A stretch of DNA of 64,000 bases, taken from assembly GCA_026023565.1 (NCBI GenBank), contig JAPETS010000039.1, forward strand, positions 1 through 64,000, in the 5' to 3' direction. Source of the stretch: Cirrosporium novae-zelandiae (Eukaryota). Below, one piece after another: positions 14,230 to 32,540 of this stretch (its first letter is position 1; every line of letters begins with the position of its first letter). The position numbers and the translations under genes are program-made. The notes under the pieces are model-generated. The model saw only the letters and a list, made by a program, of their open reading frames with translations. It did not search any database and was not told the origin of the DNA.

Positions 14230-15968
14230 ATGGCTACAACCACCATCACAATTCCTCCAAGGGTGTCCCCGAATGTGAAGGTTCAGCGAGACCTGCCTTC
14301 TCCCAAGAAGGAATTGCCCTATAAGCAGCGTGAGAACCAAGCAAAGATTGTCTTCAACAAGGTAACATCGCTGTGTTCAAAATAAGGAATTGGTGTTAAC
14401 TATCGAGCGATATAGACCATTGCGGGGCATTACCGGAATCGCGAAAACGGTTATTCCAACGTTGGATCGCTGTTGATCACCTGGGAAAATGATGACATGA
14501 ACACTCGGGGCGAGGTCAGTATTTGAATTTAGAACATGGTACATTGTACTAATTACAATTTACAATTCTGTAGGTTAAAGCCCTGCAGTCAATTCTTAGA
14601 GATAAATTTCATTACGCGACCGATGCCTTTCAAATTCCCTCTCGACGGTCTGAAACTGCACTAGTCAAAAAGGTCTCTGATTTCGTGAATGCATACGATG
14701 ATAGTGACAACCTCATAATACTTTATTATGGTGGTCACGGCTACGTTGATGAGGAATACGATGGAACAGAGGTTCTAAAGATATCAGCTAGAGAGGAGGG
14801 TAACGGGGACATTGGAGATCCGGGTGCCTTTTTTCATGATGTTCTCAATCTTCTAAAGCGCACACATTCCGACGTGCTACTCATAGTGGACTGTTGCTTT
14901 GCTGCTAGGGCCTTCACCAACCAGGAGTTGGGTCGTCGCAAATTTGAGCTTCTAACGTCGTCGCCTGCAAACATGCAGAGTTACTCTCCAAATTCAGATA
15001 AATCCTTCACCACCCTATTGATCAAAGTCCTTGAATCCCTGTTCCAGAATGAAACGTACCAACATGGGTTTCCTACCTCCGTTCTTTATCGGCGGATATA
15101 CCATCATCCTGATGCAGATTTGGATATAAAGCCCATGCTATTTGACCAGTCTCAGTTCGATTATGGCAAGATATGGCTTCGACCCCAAGTCTCAGTCGCA
15201 TACAACGCACCACTGAACAAGCCTCCTGTCTCGTTGGATCTTAGATTGAACATCAATCTGACGAAGAGTGACGAGAAGCTTGTTGGGTTGGCTATGAATG
15301 AGCTGGCAACAGCCTTGAAATATCTACCCCATGTGCATAGCATTGACTTTCAGGAATTACATGCTGGTGACGAGACAGTTCAGAAGTTCCAGGAGGGCAT
15401 ACAAAAGGTTACGCGAATCAAGAAGGTGGTTAAAAGACTGCGGAAAGTAGCTAGAGAGGCACAGCTTAGGAGGGAGTCAGAGAAAGGAGGCCCCGGTCTG
15501 AAGCGTCCTCCGAGCTTCTATGAGGTTATGGAAAGACAAGAATCATCCGCTCAAGATTGGACAGGCTCTTTTGCAAAATTCAGTGATGGAAGTACAATGG
15601 GGGTCAAAAGAAGCCCCGGGCAAGGCCGTAGGGGGTCCGAACAGGCGAAGAGAACACAAGCCCCTATACATATTCGACGTTCTTCGACCGCCATGGCCTC
15701 GTTTTCATGGCCAATCGAAGATCGTCCGTGCAGGAAAGACATTATCTTTCGTGGCAGGCGATTGAATGACCTGCTCAACGCGTATCTCGAAGATGGGGAT
15801 GGTTCTCTTGAGGTTGAACGAGCGAAATACGAGTTAGCTTTGCTACCCCTCGCCCAGAGGAGATTGATCCGGATGAAAGAGGAACTACTGTGGTGGGTGC
15901 TATCGTTAAGCTTGTCGTATGGTATTATCTATATATTTATACCATACATCAAGATGAGTCAACGATGA
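14230..15968 (+). CDS. Caspase-like (peptidase C14 / clan CD) protein with C-terminal transmembrane anchor (~541 aa), 3 exons
   Basis: Exons 14230-14361, 14416-14514, 14574-15968 splice in frame. Motifs: YSNVGSLLITWENDD, catalytic-His LIILYYGGHG, catalytic-Cys VLLIVDCCFAA, and SFTTLL. Terminal hydrophobic helix LLWWVLSLSLSYGIIYIFIPYI. Confidence 0.8.
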
Positions 15969-21850: not shown

Positions 21851-22924
21851 CTAACGAGCCACACCAATCTCACTCTCATCATTCCCCCCACCCATCCCCG
21901 CCTCCTCAATCTCTCTCCCCATCTGCTCCAAAAATGCAATCGCCTTCGGAAAGAACCCATACATCCAATAATCCTTCAAGTAGTTGCTTTGCCTCGTAAG
22001 GTACAACCAGACGTTGGCACGCTTCCAAGTATGTCTCGCCCGGTCGCCATCGCGGTTCCAGAGGTGCCCCTGCACCTTCCAGTCATTGCCCTGCTTGGTC
22101 CACACAGCGTCCAAAAGCTTCGTGAGTAGTTCGTCGGCGGGGCCATCTGACACGCGCGTCGTGATTGTCTGGCGCAAGTGCTGGAAGTCCAGAGCCATGT
22201 GCTCGTACTCTGTGGGACGGAGGGAGGTGGTCATGTCGGGCTGGTAGGACATTAGTGCCAACTGCATGAGGAGGTCGATGGCTTGTTCGAGGCCGTTGGG
22301 GGGTAAGGTGGAGAGTGCGGTGATTAGGGGTAGGTGGAAGGCTGCTTCGGCGCTGAAGGTGGGGGGTTCGATGCGGGGACGCAGCTCGTCGTGGGTGTGG
22401 GCGTGGAGGAGGTCTTTGTAGGTGTGGAAGATCTCGTCGGAGATGTGGGCGTGTTTGGAGGTTGCTGTTGGGGGGTGGGTTAGCTTTGTGTTGGAGTTGG
22501 GTTTGGGTTGGGTTTTTGGTGCTAAGGGGGAGGGGAGGTGAGGTGAGAGTAAAAGGGGGGTGAAAAAAAAAAGAAATAAGATTTGATTTCTTCTGGACTT
22601 ACTGATTTCGGTTTCACTGGCCTCCAGATTCGACTTGAGCTCCTCGTTTTTTGCTCTGAGCACCGTGTTTTCGGCGTTGAGGTCCGCCATCTGGTGCTCG
22701 AGGTCTCTGTTTCTCTGTTCAAGGTAAGACATTATTAGGGAAGGTGGCTCTTCACGTCTTTCTTCGTGGGTTTGGAGAAGCTGAGGTGAGGTTGGTTGAG
22801 GAGGTTGTGCTCCTGTTGAGTTGGTGATGGTGGTAGATCGGCGGCGTCGGAATGAAAAGGTTCTCCCTGGGAGATTGGTGAGAGAGTGGGGAAGGTTCAG
22901 AGAGAACCGGCGTGAGAGAGGCAT
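21851..22924 (-). CDS. Hypothetical protein with N-terminal coiled coil (~311 aa), 2 exons
   Basis: The ORF reads through an in-frame 138-nt intron (22602-22465, GTAAGT...GCTAAC...CAG). Heptad segment LEQRNRDLEHQMADLNAENTVLRAKNEELKSNLE. Confidence 0.6.
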   Translation of the reverse strand: MPLSRRFSLNLPHSLTNLPGRTFSFRRRRSTTITNSTGAQPPQPTSPQLLQTHEERREEPPSLIMSYLEQRNRDLEHQMADLNAENTVLRAKNEELKSNLEASETEISKSRRNQILFLFFFTPLLLSPHLPSPLAPKTQPKPNSNTKLTHPPTATSKHAHISDEIFHTYKDLLHAHTHDELRPRIEPPTFSAEAAFHLPLITALSTLPPNGLEQAIDLLMQLALMSYQPDMTTSLRPTEYEHMALDFQHLRQTITTRVSDGPADELLTKLLDAVWTKQGNDWKVQGHLWNRDGDRARHTWKRANVWLYLTRQSNYLKDYWMYGFFPKAIAFLEQMGREIEEAGMGGGNDESEIGVAR

Positions 22925-24406
22925 TTTATGGTGTCGCCGAGAATGCGGCTGAGTAGGGGGGCGGCTGGTGTCGAGATATGTTTTGTGGATGGGTACCAGG
23001 AGCGGGGCGGCGACAATAGCGGAGAGTGTTGTCGAGAGGAGTGAGGGGCGTACGCTGCGAAGGTATTGTTAGTCAACGAGAGAATGGAAGGATTGGGCAA
23101 CGATACCACCAATGTGCCAAGCCAAGGCTAGAATAGGGAAGAAGATGCTTACAGTTTGTGCTTGGGAATATTTTGAAGAAAAGAGATAGCACTCGGAAGA
23201 CACCGTCTGGTAGAGGTTGCAAATCTACATGATGAGAAACTTGTGTACCATAATTCATGCCTAAGGGGAGTCTCCAATGCGGCCCATACAAGTCCATTCT
23301 AGTGAACATCAGGACCTACCTCAAGCTTATCCCTGGCAATTGATTCCATATCTTTACTAATTCTACCGTTGCCGTACAATGGTATATAGAGTTGACCTCA
23401 AGACAGGGCCGACTTTTCTATGGCCCCTATACATCTTTTAATTTTGTTGGAAGATGGGTTGGCTATGCTCTTGTGATATCTTTTGAACTCCAACGAAATA
23501 CCGGACCTTTTCTTGTGCAGCAGTGGGCTTCTTTTACTCTCACCCTATACGCCAAGTGATTATGCTGTTCCATCATATATGAACGGGCTTAACGGTCTCA
23601 AACAATGAGCCCAAAGAGTACTTTGCTGCTGGAACCCGAACCAAAAGCTATGCACTTCGTCGTTTGGTTTCGTCAAGTCTTTGATATAGCTCTTTAAGAA
23701 AGAATACACAATCTTAAGCGGAAGTCGAGAACACCGCTGTGTCTAGGACTAGGACTAAAGACGGCTTTGGCGTCTACGTTAGTCGTGGTTTAAAGGAAAC
23801 AAGACCATTGCAGCATATAAGGAAGAAAGGGATAAAGGACCGAGGCAAGGAGCCCTGTTAATAAGCCTGTGGATTGTCTTAGCCCTATCCAATATGAACA
23901 TAATCTTTTGATGTTGCCAACCAACCAAGCATTGAGAGTTTTAAAGGAAAGATTTTTTTTTTAAAAATGATAATAAAACGCATGGCTAATGAAAGATGTG
24001 ACAAACAAAGCAAAATGTCAAGTGAGGGAATCCTGTCTCTCCTGCAAATATATATGCCTTGTAAGGCTATCATGGTAGTTGTCTATTTAATGAACGGCGC
24101 AGCACCAATCGTTGCCTCAGAGCTGAAAGACATGGGGTCAAGTTTGAAGGCAGATTGACAAATGATGCTAGTATACTGTACAGTACCAGGCAATAAGCAG
24201 TATCCATCGATCCCTTTAAGGCAGTGCCTTTGGAGAAATGGATATTAGCGTGGTTTTGTTCGAGGATGAAGTTCATAGTCTATATATCTATGGTCCAATT
24301 AACCATAACCAAATAGATAACCAAATAACCCGACTATTCCCAATTTGCCATGACTAACATATATTAGTCTAGCGTTCTCGGGTCAAATCACAACCGAGCA
24401 CGTGCC

Positions 24407-25169: not shown

Positions 25170-28100
25170 ATGGCTCATGCATCACGTCCCTTTCCTTCCA
25201 ACGGGCCCTCTCCCCGTTCTGCTAGGTTAACACGTTACCTTGACCAAATATTGTCCGGGAGATATGCCATAAAGACCCCTGCCAACGGTAATTTATTCCT
25301 GGAAGCAATATGCGATAAGGATGATCGAAAAATTTGTATCGAAAAGGTACTTGCAAGTGCAACAGGATTATCGTCTCTCAAAGAATCCTTCCGGCTAGAT
25401 TTATCTGACTCATTCCTTAACGGGCATGCGATGAAGTTTATTCGGTACCTCCAAGAACCAGGATTGAAACGTTTATGCAATGGACAGTTTCTACAACAGA
25501 TTATACTTCAGATTGTGGAACCACCAACGTTCTGGAACGCTTTAATCCAAGCCCACAAAAAAAGGGTTCTGGAGGAAAGCACCATTCAATGCTTTGCTTG
25601 GCTTTTGCTTGAACTTCTATCCCTACCTCGTGATCAAAGTATCGCATATCAAGAGATTGCAAATGCTGTGACTGAGGACAAGTCTTTACTCGACTCTTCT
25701 TCCCATGAGATTCGTATCCTGGGACAAAGAATCCATAATTCTTTACTCGTTCTCGCTTGCCCTTCTGCAAAGAATGGCCAAGACGCCCCCGGCGGTCGAC
25801 ATGATAATGATCATGTTGATTATCGTGAGATCTCGATATTGCCTACCGCTGATGAGCTTGCATCCAAAGAGAAGCCATTCATCCGTCGCGCAACCGAAAT
25901 AGCAGATTCCGATGACAATGATCGAGCCGCTTTGCATCTAGACAATCAGTTTCGTCTCCTACGTGAAGATATGCTGGAGGAACTACGCACAGATCTTCAT
26001 ATTGCCCGTGGTCTCAAAAAAGGCTTTCGGAGATCCTTGGTCATCAAAGGGCTTTCGCTGCATGGTGTCGATTGTGGGATCCCAGACTGGAGGAAGCCCT
26101 GTGGTCTGACATTTCAATGCAAGACTGATTTGGCTCAGCTTGCTCACTTGGAACCAAAGAAGCGAAGATCCTATCTCACTGAAAATAAGAGATTTCTTAA
26201 AGATCAATCCGTGGCATGCCTTCTCACAGACCAGAAAGATATAATAGCATTTGCAATAATTAGCCGAAATGAAGATCTCCTAGCACGACGACCCCCGGTC
26301 ATAGTCCTGCAGTTCTCAACGGAGCCTGCATTCTTAAAAGCCCTTATAGCTTCTCATACGTACACGGATATTCAACTATTACAGGTTGATACACCATTAT
26401 TCGCGTATGAGCCTGTGCTCAAATGCCTCCAAGAGAAGAAGGAACTGCAACTATCAGAAGAACTGCTCTTCTTCGACTCCAATCAGCGGTTACAGAACAA
26501 TTCTAATCATCTACTTACCATAATCGAAGGCATAAGGGCCAACCCTACCCAGGATTTAAAGCGGCTGCTAGGTGCCAAATGCCGTATCAATCTAGATGCT
26601 TCTCAGGTTGAATCTCTCCTAGCCGGTTTAACCCAGAGAGTAGCCCTAATACAGGGACCACCAGGTCAGTTATTCCATTGTTGTTGTGGTATATGCATGC
26701 TCACCTGAATAGGGACTGGCAAGTCGTTCATCGGGGCACTGTTGACTAAGGTTCTACACAATGCATCCTCGGACAAGATCTTGGTTGTGTGTTATACTAA
26801 TCACGCTCTAGACCAATTTCTTGAGGATCTTTTAGATATAGGGATACCAGCTACTGACATTGTCCGGTTAGGATCCAAGTCTACCCCCAAGACACTGCAA
26901 TTAACGCTTAGGGCACAAAATTCCAGGTCTAGAACTGGGCGAGATGCGTGGCAAATAATTGATAGGCTTAAGGTAGAGACAGGAGCCATGGAACAACAGC
27001 TCAGCAACGCCATCAATCAATATCAGAACCTTCGTGTCACACCAGATGAAATTCTCCAGTACTTGGAATTTCCGCCTGAAGATCCCGTGTTTTACAAAGC
27101 ACTCACTGTCGCCCAGCCTGAAGATGAGATGACCATGGTCGGAAAACGTGGCAAGGCTATCGGTAGTGACTATCTTCTAGACCGTTGGAATGCCGGAAAG
27201 GATGCTGGTGCACTTAAAAGGTTTCTTCCAGATACTGCCGTCCGTGTTTGGAGAATGTCGGTATCTCTTAGGAGAAGTCGTATGGCAGCTTGGAAACATG
27301 CCATACTAGAGGAACGTACATCCCGGATATATTCTCTCGCGATGGACTATAATAAATTGCAAAAGAGGCTGAGCGACATGCTTAACGAAAGATCTGCTCA
27401 AACGATTAGGGGCAGGCGAATCATTGGTTGCACTACAACTGCAGCAGCCAAATATTCCAGCGAGCTCCAAGCGGCATCACCTGATGTGGTTCTCGTGGAA
27501 GAGGCTGGAGAAATTCTTGAGAGTCATGTCTTGACAGCTATGGGAAGAGATACGAAACAGCTCATCCTTATAGGTGACCATAAACAACTACGGCCAAAGG
27601 TCAATAGCTATGAGTTAACAGTGGAGAAGGGGAGTGGATTCGATCTTAATCGATCCCTCTTTGAGCGTCTTGTCCATGGAAAATTATCCCACAACACCCT
27701 TTCCGAGCAGCACCGCATGTGCCCAGAGATTTCTGCACTGGTCCGTTGTCTTACATATCCCGAATTACGGGATGCAAAGTCAACTATGAATCGGCTACCC
27801 CTTCTTGGGTTTCAGGATAAGCTAGTTTTCTTTAACCATGAACAGCCAGAAGACGAATTGTTTGACCTAGTAGAAGTGAGGGATAAAACTTCCAAGACTA
27901 GTAAGACAAACAAGTTTGAAGTGGAGATGGTCTTGAAATGCGTCCGCTACCTAGGGCAGCAAGGTTATGGAACCGACAAGCTTGTAATACTGACACCATA
28001 TCTAGGGCAATTGCGACTCCTTAAAGAAACGTTGAGTAAAGACCATGATCCGGTACTTAACGATCTTGATTCTTATGATTTGGTTCGCGCTGGATTGCTT

Positions 28101-31100
28101 CCGAGCGCAAGTGCAAAGTTAAATAGACAACCTATCCGAATATCTACCATAGGTACGATTCTGATATCATTTGCCGCCGTCCCGCTAATAATTTCTTAGA
28201 CAACTACCAGGGCGAGGAAAGCGACATCGTAATCGCATCTCTAACTCGGAGTAATTCAACTGCAGACATCGGATTTATGGCGGCACCTGAGAGATTAAAT
28301 GTGTTGATTTCAAGAGCAAGAAATGCTTTAATTATGATCGGAAATGCACAAACGTTCCTCAACGCACGGAAAGGCAAAGATACTTGGGTACCTTTCTTTG
28401 ATGTCCTCCGTAAGGATGGCCACGTTTATGATGGGTTCCCTATAAAGTGTGAGAGACACCCTGGGAAGGCCTGGATTCTCCGTTGCCCTGAAGATTTCGA
28501 TTTGCAATGCCCTGATGGTGGGTGTTCGGAGCCTTGGTGAGTCTCTAATATGCATTCATTAGAGTGTTGCTTATTGTGTTATAGTGGTACTAAATTGCCA
28601 TGTGACATCCACAATTGCCCCCAGCGCTGTCATCGACTCAAAGATCATTCAAAAATGACGTGCTATCAATTCATCAAAGAAAAATGTGAAAAGGGACACA
28701 AATATACGTGGCAGTGCGTGCGCAAACGGCCTACAAAGTGTCCTAAATGTGAAGTCGAGGAAATGATTCTACTAAAAAAGCTACAAAGAGACGCAGAATT
28801 GGAGGCAAAACGGCAGGCAGCTCAAGAGGCTTATGCAAGAGAAATCGCGAAAATGGATGAAAAAATTGAAAAGCAACGCCAGATTTCGAAGGATTACTCC
28901 GATGCCGAGAATAGAAAAAAAATGTTAAAGCAGAAGGAGAAAGACCTCGCTGCTGCCCAGTCACTTACAAGTCGAATCGTCTCTAGCATGTTCTCCCCAA
29001 AGTCTTCAACTCCTTCGACAACTCAAGAATCACCCCACATGATGGGATCGCAAGGCGGTTCTACAAGCACAATCCCAAGTTCTACCCTGCATCAACCACA
29101 GCTTCATGTCCAGTCTAAATCAGCTGCTAAAGATGAATGGGATGACCAAAAGAAATTCGAAGGTGTGGCTAACGATGCACTTGATTCATTGATGGAGATG
29201 ATCGGTTTAGAAGATGTTAAATTAAAATTTCTCAATATCAAAGCAAAGGTTGACACAGCATTACGACAACAATCAGATTTAAAAAGTGAACGTTTTGGCG
29301 CAGCATTGCTAGGGAATCCTGGAACAGGTATATTTGTGATCAATTTACAACAAGTCAAGCCAAACCAGGCTTCAGACGCCCAGTTTTGCCTCGAGACCTT
29401 CCAGGCATTTATCCCACAAATATGGTTCTTCGTTGAGAGCCAGCATTTGGCTTGGGCTCGTGTGATGCTCGGAAGGCTACGAGGCAATACTAAGCGTCTC
29501 AAATCTGGCTTAGGTTGATTCGTTGAAAGATTTCCTGGCTGAGCTTTAGAACGCAGACTGATTTCTTACAGGAAAGACTACCGTAGCGAGATTGTATGCC
29601 AAGTTCCTGACTTCTTTTGGAGTAATCCCAGGCGACGAATTCATTGAAACCACTGGATCTCGGTTGGCTAATGAACGAGTTGACGGTGCTAAGAAATGTA
29701 TCGAAAATCTCATCAAAGCCGGCGGAGGCGCTCTCTTCATAGACGAGGCATATCAACTTGTTGCCAGCCATAACCATGGGGGAGCTCAGGTTCTCGACTT
29801 TCTCCTTGCTGAGATTGAGAATCAAACAGGAAAAATTGTCGTTATATTGGCTGGCTACAACAAGCAAATGGAAGCTTTCTTTGAGCACAATCCTGGAATT
29901 CCAAGTCGCATTCCCCACTCTTTAAAATTTGCAGATTATGATGATACCGAGCTGTTGCAAATACTGTGCCGTCTGATATCCAAGAAATACCGAGGACGAA
30001 TGAAGGTCGAGGATAGTTTCGACGGGCTCTATCTTCGTATTGCAGCACGCCGTATCGGTCGGGGAAGAGGCCGAGAAGGGTTTGGAAACGCCCGAGCGGT
30101 GGAAAATGCATTTTCTAGAATCCAGGATCGACAAGCAGATCGTCTACGCCAAGAGCGCAAGCAGGGCAAGAAACCAGATGACTTTTTCTTCACAAAAGAG
30201 GACATAATTGGTCCAGAGCCATCCAAAGCCGTCGAGACAAATTCATCATGGGTAGAGCTCCAGGGACTTATAGGGCTCAAAGACGTGAAGGAGTCAGTTC
30301 GATGCTTTCTCGATCGCATACAGCAGAATTATCGTCGGGAATTAGAAGAGAAGCCGATAATAGATTGTTCGCTCAACAAAGTGTTTCTTGGGAATCCTGG
30401 TACCGGAAAAACAACAGTGGCGAAGCTTTATGGGCAAATACTGGCGGATCTTGGCCTTTTAAGCAATGGAGAAGGTAAGTGTGATATCTTGACTGGTCAC
30501 CTAGCACTCCTCTGTCCCCCACGTCTGACAAAACATCCAGTTATCGTCAAGAACCCGGCAGACTTTGTCGGAAGTGTACTAGGCCAGTCTGAAAGTAATA
30601 CTAAAGCTATCCTAGCTTCAACGATAGGTAAGGTGTTGATAATAGATGAAGCATATATGCTCTCTGGTGGATTTGGTGGAGATAAAAATCAAGGCGATCC
30701 ATATAAAACCGCTGTCATAGACACAATTGTTGCAGAAGTCCAGAGTGTCGCTGGTGATGATCAGTGTGTTCTTCTCCTTGGATACCGCGATCAAATGGAA
30801 AATATGTTTCAATCGGTCAACCCTGGACTGTCACGCCGGTTCCCCCTTGACTCTGCATTCGATTTCGAGGATTTCGAGGACGGTGAACTTGCGCAAATCC
30901 TAGACCTAAAGTTGAAAAAGCAGGGATTCTCTACCACAGAAAAGGGAAAGGATGTGGCGCTAGAGGTCCTGCGAAGAGCACGCGTCCGACCGAATTTTGG
31001 AAATGCTGGTGAAGTTGATATCCTTCTTGACAGGGCTAAGGCAGTTCATCAAAAAAGGCTTTCTAAACAACTTACTCGTGACCTTGATACTCTCGAACCG

Positions 31101-32540
31101 GGAGATTTTGACGAGGACTTTGATCGAGGGACTCGAGCAGCAACGAATTGCCGACAGTTGTTCAAAGGAGTTGTTGGTTGCGAGGGGGTGATTGCAAAAC
31201 TGGAAGGCTATCAACGTATAGCTCAGAACATGAAAAAACGGAATCTTGATCCAAAAGAGCAAATTCCATTTAACTTTCTCTTCAAGGGCCCTCCAGGTAA
31301 GATTTCCATTTTATCTATATTCTAGTGTCCTAACATCAACTGGCTAGGGACCGGGAAAACTACAACTGCTCGGAAGATGGGAAAGGTATTTTACGATATG
31401 GGATTTTTATCTAGCGCAAAAGTCGAGGATTGCTCTGCCACAGATCTCATCGGACAATATGTTGGACAAACGGGTCCAAAGGTTCTCAAGCAATTGGATA
31501 AAGCACTCGGAAGGGTGCTGTTCATTGACGAAGCCTACCGCCTTGGGGACGGTGGATTTGCAACCGAGGCCATGAACGAGCTTGTTGATAGTCTTACGAA
31601 ACCCAAATACGCCAAGAAATTGATCACCATTCTGGCAGGTTATGATGCTGACATGAATCGCTTAATGTCTATCAATCCCGGGCTGACGAGCCGATTTCCA
31701 GAGTCTATTATTTTTGAAAGCCTTGCCTCTTCAGATGCGCTAAAGCTACTCTCCCTAACATTAAAGAAAAGTAAAGTGGATACTACAATTTTGCAAGATA
31801 CCTCGAGTCCCCTCTATACAAGCTTGCTGGGTCTTTTGGATGAGTTGTCTGGCCTTCCATCCTGGGGCAACGCTCGAGATGTTCAAACTCTCTCCAAGGA
31901 GATTTATGCATCCCTGATCAGCGCAGAAGTCGATTCGACAACAGCCTTGACGCTAGATTCGGAAACGCTTCTAGAATCAACCAAAGCCATGCTAGCAGAA
32001 AGAAAATCCCGAATCACGAACTTGCCTCCAAGCCTACCACTCACTGGCAACCTACCGACTCTATCCTTAACACCGAACCCTCCTCAGACTCCAGCATACC
32101 AAACCAGCACGACCATCACCAAAAATATAAACAACAAACCTCCAACCCCACTCCTAGAACAAGTAAAAACAGCCGCTAAGCACGAAAGCTCCTCCAAAGA
32201 AGCCGAAAGGGACGCCGAAGTATCCGATGAGATCTGGGAAGCTCTTCAGAGGGACAAGGCTGCCGCCGAGAGGCGACTGCAAGAAGAATACGAGGAGACG
32301 CTGCTAAAAGCCGAACAGCTCCGCCAGGCCAAGGAAGCTGAGGCTCGAAAGAAGGCGCTGGAGGAACTCGAAAGGATACGAAGGGAAGCAGAGGAGAAAA
32401 GACGCAAGGAAGCCCTGGCGCAAGAGAAGCTTAGGAACATGGGCGTCTGTGTGCAGGGGTTTCAGTGGATCAAGCAAGGTTCTGGATATCGCTGTGCTGG
32501 TGGAGCTCACTATATCTCGAATGATAGATTGGGGATTTGA
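25170..32540 (+). CDS. ZNFX1-like SF1 (Upf1/NAM7-type) helicase fused to NF-X1-like Cys/His region and three CbbX/SpoVK-type AAA+ domains (~2288 aa), 7 exons
   Basis: Exons 25170-26664, 26713-28152, 28200-28536, 28585-29327, 29572-30474, 30541-31296, 31348-32540 total 6867 nt in frame. ZNFX1-like HLDNQFRLLRED. Helicase motifs IQGPPGTGKS, TNHALD, VEEAGE, IGDHKQLRP, SLFERL, QHRM, LTPYLGQ, DNYQGEE, RLNVLISRA. Three AAA modules: GNPGTGKT/FIDEAY, GNPGTGKT/IIDEAY, GPPGTGKT/FIDEAY. Confidence 0.92.
29348..29525. repeat. Imperfect inverted repeat (55-bp arms) inside intron 4 of the helicase-AAA gene
   Basis: Arm 29348-29402 against the reverse complement of 29471-29525 gives 41/55 identities by hand alignment. 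Confidence 0.8.

Follow-up and report, generated by a model that had tools for sequence, protein, structure and literature searches.

The fungus Cirrosporium novae-zelandiae (Xylobotryomycetes, Pezizomycotina) encodes a 2,288-aa protein that joins an RNA helicase of the type of ZNFX1, an antiviral sensor of animals, to three AAA+ ATPase modules of the CbbX/SpoVK type. The gene lies on the forward strand of the 64,000-nucleotide window that we analysed (contig JAPETS010000039.1, positions 1 to 64,000). Our favoured explanation, which we hold with confidence and doubt in equal measure, is that the product is a ZNFX1-family superfamily 1 (SF1) helicase in which the E3 ubiquitin-ligase C-terminus of the animal form is replaced by three AAA+ modules and a Cys/His tail particular to the family, and that it works as an RNA-gated remodeller. 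The helicase chassis is known, and its coupling to a triple AAA+ effector is undescribed in the literature searched. No description of the helicase–AAA+ fusion was found in full-text literature; supplements were outside the scope of that search, so expression tables (e.g. for FGSG_02130) may exist. A first-pass annotation of this DNA had expected similar fungal proteins to exist under automated names, as they do, and we found no functional description of them.

The gene has the following structure.

25170-32540, + strand: whole gene, with an ATG at 25170 and a stop codon that ends at 32540, supported by splice sites, a clean translation and homologues
25170-26664, 26713-28152, 28200-28536, 28585-29327, 29572-30474, 30541-31296 and 31348-32540, + strand: seven exons
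26665-26712, 28153-28199, 28537-28584, 29328-29571, 30475-30540 and 31297-31347, + strand: six introns, all GT-AG

Six stop-to-stop open frames on the forward strand between 25155 and 32540 (517, 496, 137, 325, 587 and 404 aa) underlie this model, and the spliced coding sequence of 6,867 nt contains 0 internal stops. The first-pass annotation had proposed one spliced protein of ~2288 aa built from five open frames; the length and the joining are borne out by the clean spliced frame, but the count is six, the frame left out being that of 137 aa. The two motif strings that it quoted are present at residues 218-230 and 256-267. Four Walker A motifs start at residues 496, 1334, 1612 and 1889; the Pfam matches are AAA_11 and AAA_12 for exons 2-3 and, for each of exons 5, 6 and 7, AAA, AAA_lid_6 or both. 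Exon 4 (28585-29327) runs without a stop from the end of a Cys/His-rich stalk through the first helical segment and a linker to the start of the first AAA+ module, as far as its Walker A motif. Because this exon alone spans both halves, the fusion of helicase and AAA+ parts is independent of any splice prediction.

The exon junctions were checked by aligning the spliced protein with 40 of 85 full-length homologues, of which 14 rows were inspected. The segment encoded by intron 4 is absent from all 14 homologue rows and that of intron 5 from 12, the other two being P0008, with an insert of similar size, and P0016, with 2 extra residues. At the site of intron 1, 13 of the 14 rows have no insert and P0008 has 18 extra residues, while junctions 2, 3 and 6 are gap-free in each homologue row that covers them. 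Homology and splice-site consensus together support all six junctions of the 2,288-aa model. A public protein from metagenome-assembled C. novae-zelandiae (P0001, a hypothetical protein of 2,372 aa) is 100% identical over exon 1, and the sole differences from our model are 62 aa of intron 4, retained inside the Walker A motif of the first AAA+ module, and 22 aa of intron 5. Intron 5, at 66 nt and in frame, is fully read through in the deposited entry, and intron 4, at 244 nt, is read through in part. Since homologues lack both retained segments, the 2,288-aa model is better than the deposited one. Relatives that carry the helicase and AAA+ parts in a single protein measure 2,281-2,511 aa and lie on contigs of 9-12 kb.

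Introns 1, 4 and 6 are all in phase 1, and each splits a glycine codon in one of the Walker A loops. Introns 1 (helicase, G499) and 6 (third AAA+ module, G1892) interrupt the same point of the motif, G-P-P-G^T-G-K, despite the unrelated folds, and intron 4 (first AAA+ module, G1339) lies two codons downstream of that position. The coincidence may reflect nothing other than an AG|G splice-site preference.

The N-terminal half of the protein contains the helicase and the segments that precede it.

25170-25769, + strand: N-terminal all-alpha domain of ~10 helices, residues 1-200 (helices 15-196 in the AlphaFold2 exon-1 model)
25788-25811, + strand: conserved P-G-G-R-H-D-N-D motif, residues 207-214, preceding the ZNFX1-like segment
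25806-26663, + strand: ZNFX1-like pre-helicase segment, residues 213-498, with a long helix and beta-barrel 1B (residues about 291-405)
26640-28354, + strand: SF1 helicase core, residues 491-1030, matched by Pfam AAA_11 and AAA_12 and by ZNFX1
residues 496-503: helicase Walker A motif, GPPGTGKS, split by intron 1
residues about 545-745: large 1C insertion of the helicase
27495-27512: helicase motif II, V-E-E-A-G-E, residues 760-765
residues about 1010-1022: helicase motif VI

Comparison of the exon sequences with all sequences of solved structures assigned the helicase to the ZNFX1 type. Exon 2 scored 165.3 bits against ZNFX1 (9q9z_A; E 2.3e-47) and 50.3 bits against UPF1 (E 1.7e-12), with Aquarius, SEN1-like proteins and IGHMBP2 all below the UPF1 score. 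Upstream, residues 213-498 matched residues 414-708 of the same ZNFX1 chain (phmmer E 1.3e-9); downstream, exon 3 matched chain residues 1274-1378 (E 4.6e-13), reaching beyond the helicase into the first Cys-rich element, so that the match is collinear across ~880 residues. The Pfam matches to the helicase were AAA_11 at 7.7e-22 and AAA_12 at 9.7e-19, with the end of AAA_12 on exon 3 at 6.7e-15. Motif II aligns onto the V-E-E-A-A-E of ZNFX1, and E761, E762, A763 and G764 are present in all rows of a 41-row alignment; the helicase motif residues are conserved in 40-41 of the 41. The deviant motif II, E-E-A-A in place of D-E-x-x, is singled out as a peculiarity of ZNFX1 in a preprint (10.1101/2025.10.14.682297).

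Structural modelling gave the same picture. The AlphaFold2 model of exon 1, built from a 55-row alignment, had a predicted local distance difference test score (pLDDT) of 89.6 and a predicted template modelling score (pTM) of 0.79, and consists of the all-alpha domain, the long helix and the beta-barrel. Its top Foldseek match was the ZNFX1 helicase core (9q9z, E 1.2e-7), followed by SETX, Aquarius and IGHMBP2. The first-pass annotation had named a grouping with Upf1, Sen1 or Aquarius as the finding that would overturn its assignment; bit scores, collinearity, motif II and Foldseek all place the helicase with ZNFX1 instead.

The domain at the very N-terminus (residues 1-200) has no Pfam match. 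The modelled fold is possibly armadillo-like, to judge from faint Foldseek similarity (E about 0.1) to designed armadillo repeats; the solved chain of ZNFX1 does not cover the armadillo domain of that protein. Nothing in the ZNFX1 alignment corresponds to the P-G-G-R-H-D-N-D motif behind the N-terminal domain. All 41 rows share G208-D214, and 38 share P207; in the 55-row alignment G208, R210, H211, N213 and D214 are invariant and the other three residues nearly so. The 1C insertion is poorly conserved (0.36 identity) but contains a conserved acidic–hydrophobic island around residues 612-665, a candidate counterpart of the autoinhibitory acidic plug helix of ZNFX1.

Structural and biochemical work from 2025-2026 depicts ZNFX1 as an autoinhibited RNA helicase coupled to ubiquitin-ligase effectors: the helicase is held in check by a 1C-insertion helix, the acidic plug helix, and released by single-stranded RNA, its oligomeric state changes upon RNA binding, and its E3 ligase domains act on RNA–protein assemblies. 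The sections of the ZNFX1 structure papers reached by a targeted look-up mention neither fungi nor AAA+. The Cirrosporium protein and ZNFX1 have in common an all-alpha domain at the N-terminus, an SF1 helicase whose motif II is the deviant E-E-A and in which a large insertion separates motif I from motif II, and, behind the helicase, a Cys/His stalk; the two are collinear from the pre-helicase segment to the first Cys-rich element. Unlike ZNFX1, the fungal protein has a shorter Cys/His stalk, no RZ finger or Miz-type E3 module (no Pfam match on the tail, which offers 2 Cys and 1 His), and three AAA+ modules where ZNFX1 has its E3 region.

Other members and neighbours of this helicase group provide further points of comparison. 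Hrr1 of Schizosaccharomyces pombe and SAD-3 of Neurospora, which we compared by description only, are fungal members of the ZNFX1 helicase family and RNAi helicases. They are about half the length of the Cirrosporium protein and have no known AAA+ modules. The preprint names Hrr1 as the protein nearest in sequence to the 1C insertion of ZNFX1 (10.1101/2025.10.14.682297). The helicase core also matched the PADLOC model of MkoA, the helicase of the Mokosh antiphage system, at 6e-37. MkoA is bacterial and has no AAA+ triplet, and the two resemble each other because both belong to a Upf1-like helicase clade; the match does not make the Cirrosporium protein a member of the system.

The C-terminal half of the protein is dominated by the AAA+ modules.

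29183-30191, + strand: AAA1, residues 1291-1545 (Pfam AAA and AAA_lid_6; NCBIfam SpoVK 1.6e-49, CbbX 1e-44); Walker A 1334-1341, split by intron 4, Walker B D1396-E1397, R1451, sensor-2 R1513, no aromatic pore loop
30249-31112, + strand: AAA2, residues 1565-1830, interrupted by intron 5 (Pfam AAA_lid_6; NCBIfam CbbX 3.1e-24); Walker A 1612-1619, Walker B D1675-E1676, R1738-R1739, Gly at the sensor-2 position (G-N-A-G-E)
31155-31973, + strand: AAA3, residues 1845-2100 (Pfam AAA; NCBIfam SpoVK 9.4e-34); Walker A 1889-1896, split by intron 6, Walker B D1952-E1953, R2007, sensor-2 R2068, pore loop Y1929-V-G

Each exon matches only parts of the AAA+ modules because introns cut them. Per module, the NCBIfam matches were to SpoVK, CbbX and EccA only (E 1e-17 to 1e-49), at scores far under the equivalog cut-offs (168 bits at best against 423 for SpoVK, and 153 against 459 for CbbX). 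For the structure we modelled a 1,028-aa homologue fragment (P0291) that extends from AAA1 to the C-terminus and is 57% identical to the Cirrosporium protein over that range, using a 61-row alignment (pLDDT 85.6, pTM 0.64). A structure search independent of Foldseek (VIA-align) returned CbbX (PDB 3syk/3syl) as the best match, with Z 25.0, a root-mean-square deviation (rmsd) of 4.2 Å over 282 residues and 30% identity; the next match had Z 16.7. All three modules keep the Walker A motif, the Walker B Asp-Glu pair and the arginine of N-P-G-x-x-S-R, each in 40-41 of 41 rows. The proposal of three CbbX/SpoVK/EccA-type modules with intact Walker motifs therefore stands on profile, structure and residue conservation alike.

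CbbX, the red-type Rubisco activase, assembles into a ring and remodels its substrate by threading the substrate's tail through the pore. The fungal modules share with the CbbX/SpoVK/EccA group the combined AAA and AAA_lid_6 fold, and AAA3 keeps the G-Q-Y-[IV]-G type of pore loop found in CbbX. Unlike CbbX, the protein carries three non-identical modules per chain, fused to a helicase and without Rubisco context, and the pore-loop Tyr is missing from two of the three. The CbbX-like aromatic loop Y-V-G occurs in AAA3 only (38 of 41 rows have Tyr1929); near the pore-loop position AAA2 shows a conserved F-V-G, and AAA1 has no aromatic residue there. In AAA2, Gly1796 replaces the sensor-2 Arg in every one of the 41 rows. 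These fixed differences suggest a division of labour, with AAA3 as the substrate-engaging module. Across fungal classes, mean identity to the Cirrosporium protein in the 41 rows is 0.65 for AAA1, 0.69 for AAA2 and 0.60 for AAA3, compared with 0.57 for the helicase, 0.41-0.47 for the N-terminal 490 residues and 0.26-0.29 for the linkers.

The remaining parts of the protein connect the two halves or follow the AAA+ modules.

28448-28750, + strand: Cys/His-rich stalk, residues 1062-1146, split by intron 3, in which 17 Cys/His positions are conserved
28760-29176, + strand: charged helical, coiled-coil-like segment, residues 1150-1215, followed by a Ser/Thr/Gln-rich low-complexity linker, residues 1216-1288, both read from the sequence
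31974-32432, + strand: Pro/Thr/Ser-rich linker, residues 2101-2185, followed by a long charged helical segment, residues 2186-2253
32433-32537, + strand: C-terminal conserved motif, residues 2254-2288, a small beta structure and a helix

The 17 stalk positions are conserved in 38-41 of 41 rows, and the first part of the stalk aligns with ZNFX1 up to chain residue 1378. The region behind it (residues 1150-1288) is the least conserved of the protein, with a mean identity to homologues of 0.29. In the homologue model, the equivalent of linker 2101-2185 has pLDDT <50 and is followed by two helices of ~50 residues (884-931 and 942-993), and the tail forms strands (1002-1019) and a helix at pLDDT about 90. 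Of the 41 rows, 40-41 keep the tail residues C2259, W2265, C2274 and H2279. The protein thus has a conserved Cys/His region, charged helical segments of coiled-coil-like character and a small Cys/His tail, in line with the first-pass annotation. The tail has no Pfam match and no usable match in an Atlas search. A search with residues 355-396 of exon 7, which covered proteins of 217-693 aa only, returned 20 matches; all 20 look like C-terminal fragments of the same family, and 14 carry AAA.

The RZ domain of ZNFX1 has four zinc ligands and a catalytic Cys/His pair, according to a preprint, and the RZ finger is common to RNF213 and ZNFX1. The tail of the Cirrosporium protein is not an RZ finger, because C2259, C2274 and H2279 are too few ligands. 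The earlier picture of a ZNFX1/RNF213 hybrid consequently reduces to an analogy. RNF213 (mysterin) is likewise a giant protein with AAA+ modules, and itself combines AAA+ with an innate-immunity effector. It has six dynein-like AAA units, RING and RZ E3 domains and no known SF1 helicase; the Cirrosporium modules, by contrast, are of CbbX type, and Pfam found no E3 domain.

The helicase–AAA+ design is widespread, as judged by sequence searches. A search with exon 1 found 585 proteins at E <=1e-3 among 7,999 scored candidates, and of the best 120 of these 86 were >=2,200 aa, 9 were 1,500-2,199 aa and 25 were shorter. The named matches belong to what we take to be the Dothideomycetes, Eurotiomycetes, Lecanoromycetes, Leotiomycetes, Orbiliomycetes, Pezizomycetes, Geoglossomycetes and Agaricomycetes, and Sordariomycetes appear as well in a search with exon 6. 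Named AAA-bearing relatives include proteins of Fusarium graminearum (FGSG_02130, 2,259 aa), Atractiella rhizophila, Rozella allomycis (partial) and the chrysophyte alga Chlorochromonas danica (2,266 aa), and orthologues also occur in Penicillium rubens, Aspergillus luchuensis and Orbilia oligospora. The presence of helicase and AAA+ parts in the alga shows that the design reaches beyond the fungi, to which the first-pass annotation had assigned it. The alga is the one confirmed case outside the fungi, and Rozella the one confirmed case in an early-diverging fungus. Some genomes have two copies, as in the case of two proteins on one Crassisporium contig.

The helicase itself extends further than the fusion. 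Among 1.84 billion cluster representatives, exon 2 had 7,158 matches at E <=1e-3, 1,636 of them at E <=1e-30. We surveyed the effectors of 26 long, more distant proteins hand-picked from 150 matches listed: nine carried AAA+, three a C-terminal PARP catalytic domain and one a CCCH finger, one was an insect ZNFX1 and 12 had the helicase only. As the same type of helicase carries PARP, AAA+ or, in animal ZNFX1, E3 ligase domains, the arrangement fits a sensor-plus-effector logic. The three PARP-ended relatives (P0203, P0223 and P0228, on contigs of 5.8-7.7 kb) are 39-42% identical to exon 2 and have no AAA+; one of them also has a SAM domain at its N-terminus. When viral contigs, both phage and giant virus, were scanned, 80 loci (L001-L080) came up, nearly all with a single CbbX/SpoVK-like module of ~270 aa whose identity to the fungal ones is 26-43%; at L019 the match extends over ~466 aa.

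The history of the family was examined with two trees, one from FastTree (59 rows) and a quick one from IQ-TREE (50 rows, 1,128 conserved columns); the latter omits near-duplicates (P0024, P0027, P0038, P0043 and P0044), unnamed sequences (P0055, P0056 and P0157) and a gappy one (P0049). The ten basidiomycete rows form one clade in both trees. FastTree nested these copies inside the Ascomycota, a placement that was not upheld, as the approximately unbiased (AU) test does not reject ascomycete monophyly (p-AU 0.243). The order of classes inside the Ascomycota departs from the species tree. The AU test rejected a single clade of the six Eurotiomycetes rows (p 5e-4), a single clade of the twelve Dothideomycetes rows (p 1.6e-6) and a clade of the ten Pleosporales-type rows that excludes the Orbiliomycetes (p 7.9e-19), p-values that overstate the case because the groups were named after the tree had been viewed. 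Copies from Orbiliomycetes (P0019, P0020, P0030 and others) sit on short branches within the Pleosporales copies, a placement that suggests transfer or hidden paralogy. Overall, the trees suggest old paralogy followed by differential loss, perhaps with transfer into the Orbiliomycetes as well.

The frames that flank the gene encode a class II tRNA synthetase, a pectinesterase, a caspase-domain protein, a proteasomal ATPase, a fimbrin-like protein, an aldo-keto reductase and a promethin. Three features of the upstream region are recorded here.

14574-15965, + strand: 464-aa frame with a caspase (Peptidase_C14) domain (E 6e-6), ~9 kb upstream of the gene, probably a metacaspase-like gene
21851-23068, - strand: 405-aa frame without a Pfam match
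22001-24000: the window's GC-richest and most skewed stretch (GC 0.495, skew 0.255), which holds the 405-aa frame

Our data are consistent with a model in which the front half of the protein would bind and translocate on single-stranded RNA, as ZNFX1 does; from its homology, the helicase half should act on RNA in a similar manner. The large 1C insertion may autoinhibit the helicase, and engagement of RNA would then license the AAA+ part. This part would hydrolyse ATP at up to three distinct sites per chain and do mechanical work on a protein or RNA–protein partner, with AAA3 supplying the sole canonical pore loop. Oligomerization, for example a dimer that gives six modules, is plausible, and the setting could be RNA surveillance, silencing or antiviral defence. 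What the sequences show directly is the gene structure, both homologies, the conserved catalytic residues and the broad distribution; the activation by RNA, the substrate, the 2x3 ring and the biological role we infer.

Several results weigh against this explanation. The Pfam ZNFX1 domain (PF25396) gave no match on exon 1 up to E 10, although the same model does match an insect ZNFX1. The set of profiles that the first-pass annotation proposed for checking its domains gave a divided result: AAA_11, AAA_12, AAA and AAA_lid_6 all match, but zf-NF-X1 has no match in the stalk up to E 10. One aromatic pore loop among three modules weakens the case for classical threading. The structure searches with Foldseek and VIA-align gave single-module matches or poor two-module superpositions on p97, Rix7, NVL and Sec18, and the two-module superpositions on such stacked-ring ATPases had an rmsd of 6.5-18 Å and Z scores no higher than those of the single-module matches; for this reason neither a half-ring nor a stacked arrangement can be claimed. 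As for a role in defence, no sign of a defence island was found among the flanking frames, where the neighbours are housekeeping or otherwise ordinary genes. The strong conservation of the AAA+ modules (0.60-0.69) is unlike that of a fast-evolving immune gene, and together with the housekeeping neighbours it is explained no less well by a constitutive role in the cell than by defence.

The alternative that survives best, less probable than the RNA-gated remodeller but deserving to be taken seriously, is that the same molecule serves housekeeping RNA metabolism rather than defence, whether in small-RNA and heterochromatin pathways like Hrr1 and SAD-3, in quality control of mRNA or ribonucleoprotein (RNP), or in granule disassembly. 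Catalytic motifs under strong purifying selection and an identity of 0.57-0.69 in the helicase and AAA+ parts speak for such a role, as do the ordinary neighbour genes and the presence of the family across Pezizomycotina and Agaricomycetes, and in Rozella, Atractiella and a chrysophyte. That the AU test does not reject ascomycete monophyly (p-AU 0.243) is compatible with old vertical descent, and ZNFX-1, Hrr1 and SAD-3 are linked to RNA silencing. However, the gene tree departs from the species tree in the Ascomycota (p 5e-4 and p 7.9e-19, for groups chosen post hoc), some genomes, such as that of Crassisporium, have two copies, and the swapping of PARP, AAA+ and E3 effectors is more typical of conflict systems. 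Conservation and context thus favour housekeeping, while effector swapping, paralogy, the immune roles of ZNFX1 and the similarity to MkoA favour defence.

A bolder extension of the favoured explanation, which we put forward as speculation and consider improbable, is that helicases of the ZNFX1 type form an ancient RNA-sensing platform of eukaryotes to which different effectors can be attached: animals would use a ubiquitin ligase, certain protists a PARP domain, and fungi along with at least one stramenopile a motor of three CbbX-type AAA+ modules. The fungal form would be an undescribed, cell-autonomous immune machine. Viral or transposon RNA would relieve an autoinhibition like that of ZNFX1, two chains would assemble six AAA+ modules, and these would strip or unfold the proteins of foreign RNPs.

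Somewhat less credible still is the idea that the AAA+ modules are no unfoldase but a switch or assembly platform under nucleotide control, much as the AAA core of RNF213 gates the E3 activity of that protein. The modules would then govern how the helicase clusters on RNA or whether the C-terminal motif is exposed. The restriction of the aromatic pore loop to AAA3, with none in AAA1, would fit a switch, as would the loss of the sensor-2 Arg from AAA2 in all 41 rows. ZNFX1 operates through RNA-driven changes of oligomeric state, and ATP binding to the AAA core is reported to activate RNF213 (PMC12075652). Against a pure switch, the Walker B Asp-Glu pair and the N-P-G-x-x-S-R arginine are conserved in all modules, which argues for hydrolysis over mere binding. 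The closest structural relative, CbbX, is moreover a remodeller that pulls its substrate.

That the gene is an annotation artefact, in which adjacent genes for a helicase and a triple AAA+ ATPase were wrongly merged, is highly improbable: many database entries of 900-1,200 aa do have the helicase half or the AAA+ half only, but the AAA-only entries have their starts at protein positions 1339-1375 or 1115, where an intron has just ended or an exon has its first Met, exon 4 joins both halves without a stop, and most matches are full-length (86 of the best 120 at >=2,200 aa). The proposal of one fused gene is thereby upheld. Stand-alone AAA-triplet proteins, seen in Hypocreales and elsewhere, were considered as a separate architecture and rejected, as their starts lie just behind intron sites; by the same token, the AAA-only entries are truncated gene calls. 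Public gene models in the helicase–AAA+ family are often wrong: the deposited Cirrosporium protein retains two introns, and many others are split at intron positions.

Returning to the RNA-gated remodeller, the analysis brings forward a large and so far unstudied protein as a candidate for a part in the RNA surveillance or antiviral defence of fungi. In this family a ZNFX1-type chassis is coupled to an effector quite different from the ubiquitin ligase of animal ZNFX1, namely three specialised AAA+ modules, a version conserved across hundreds of proteins from fungi and also in a chrysophyte alga. The family therefore represents a natural test of whether the ZNFX1-type helicase is a general RNA-gated switch.

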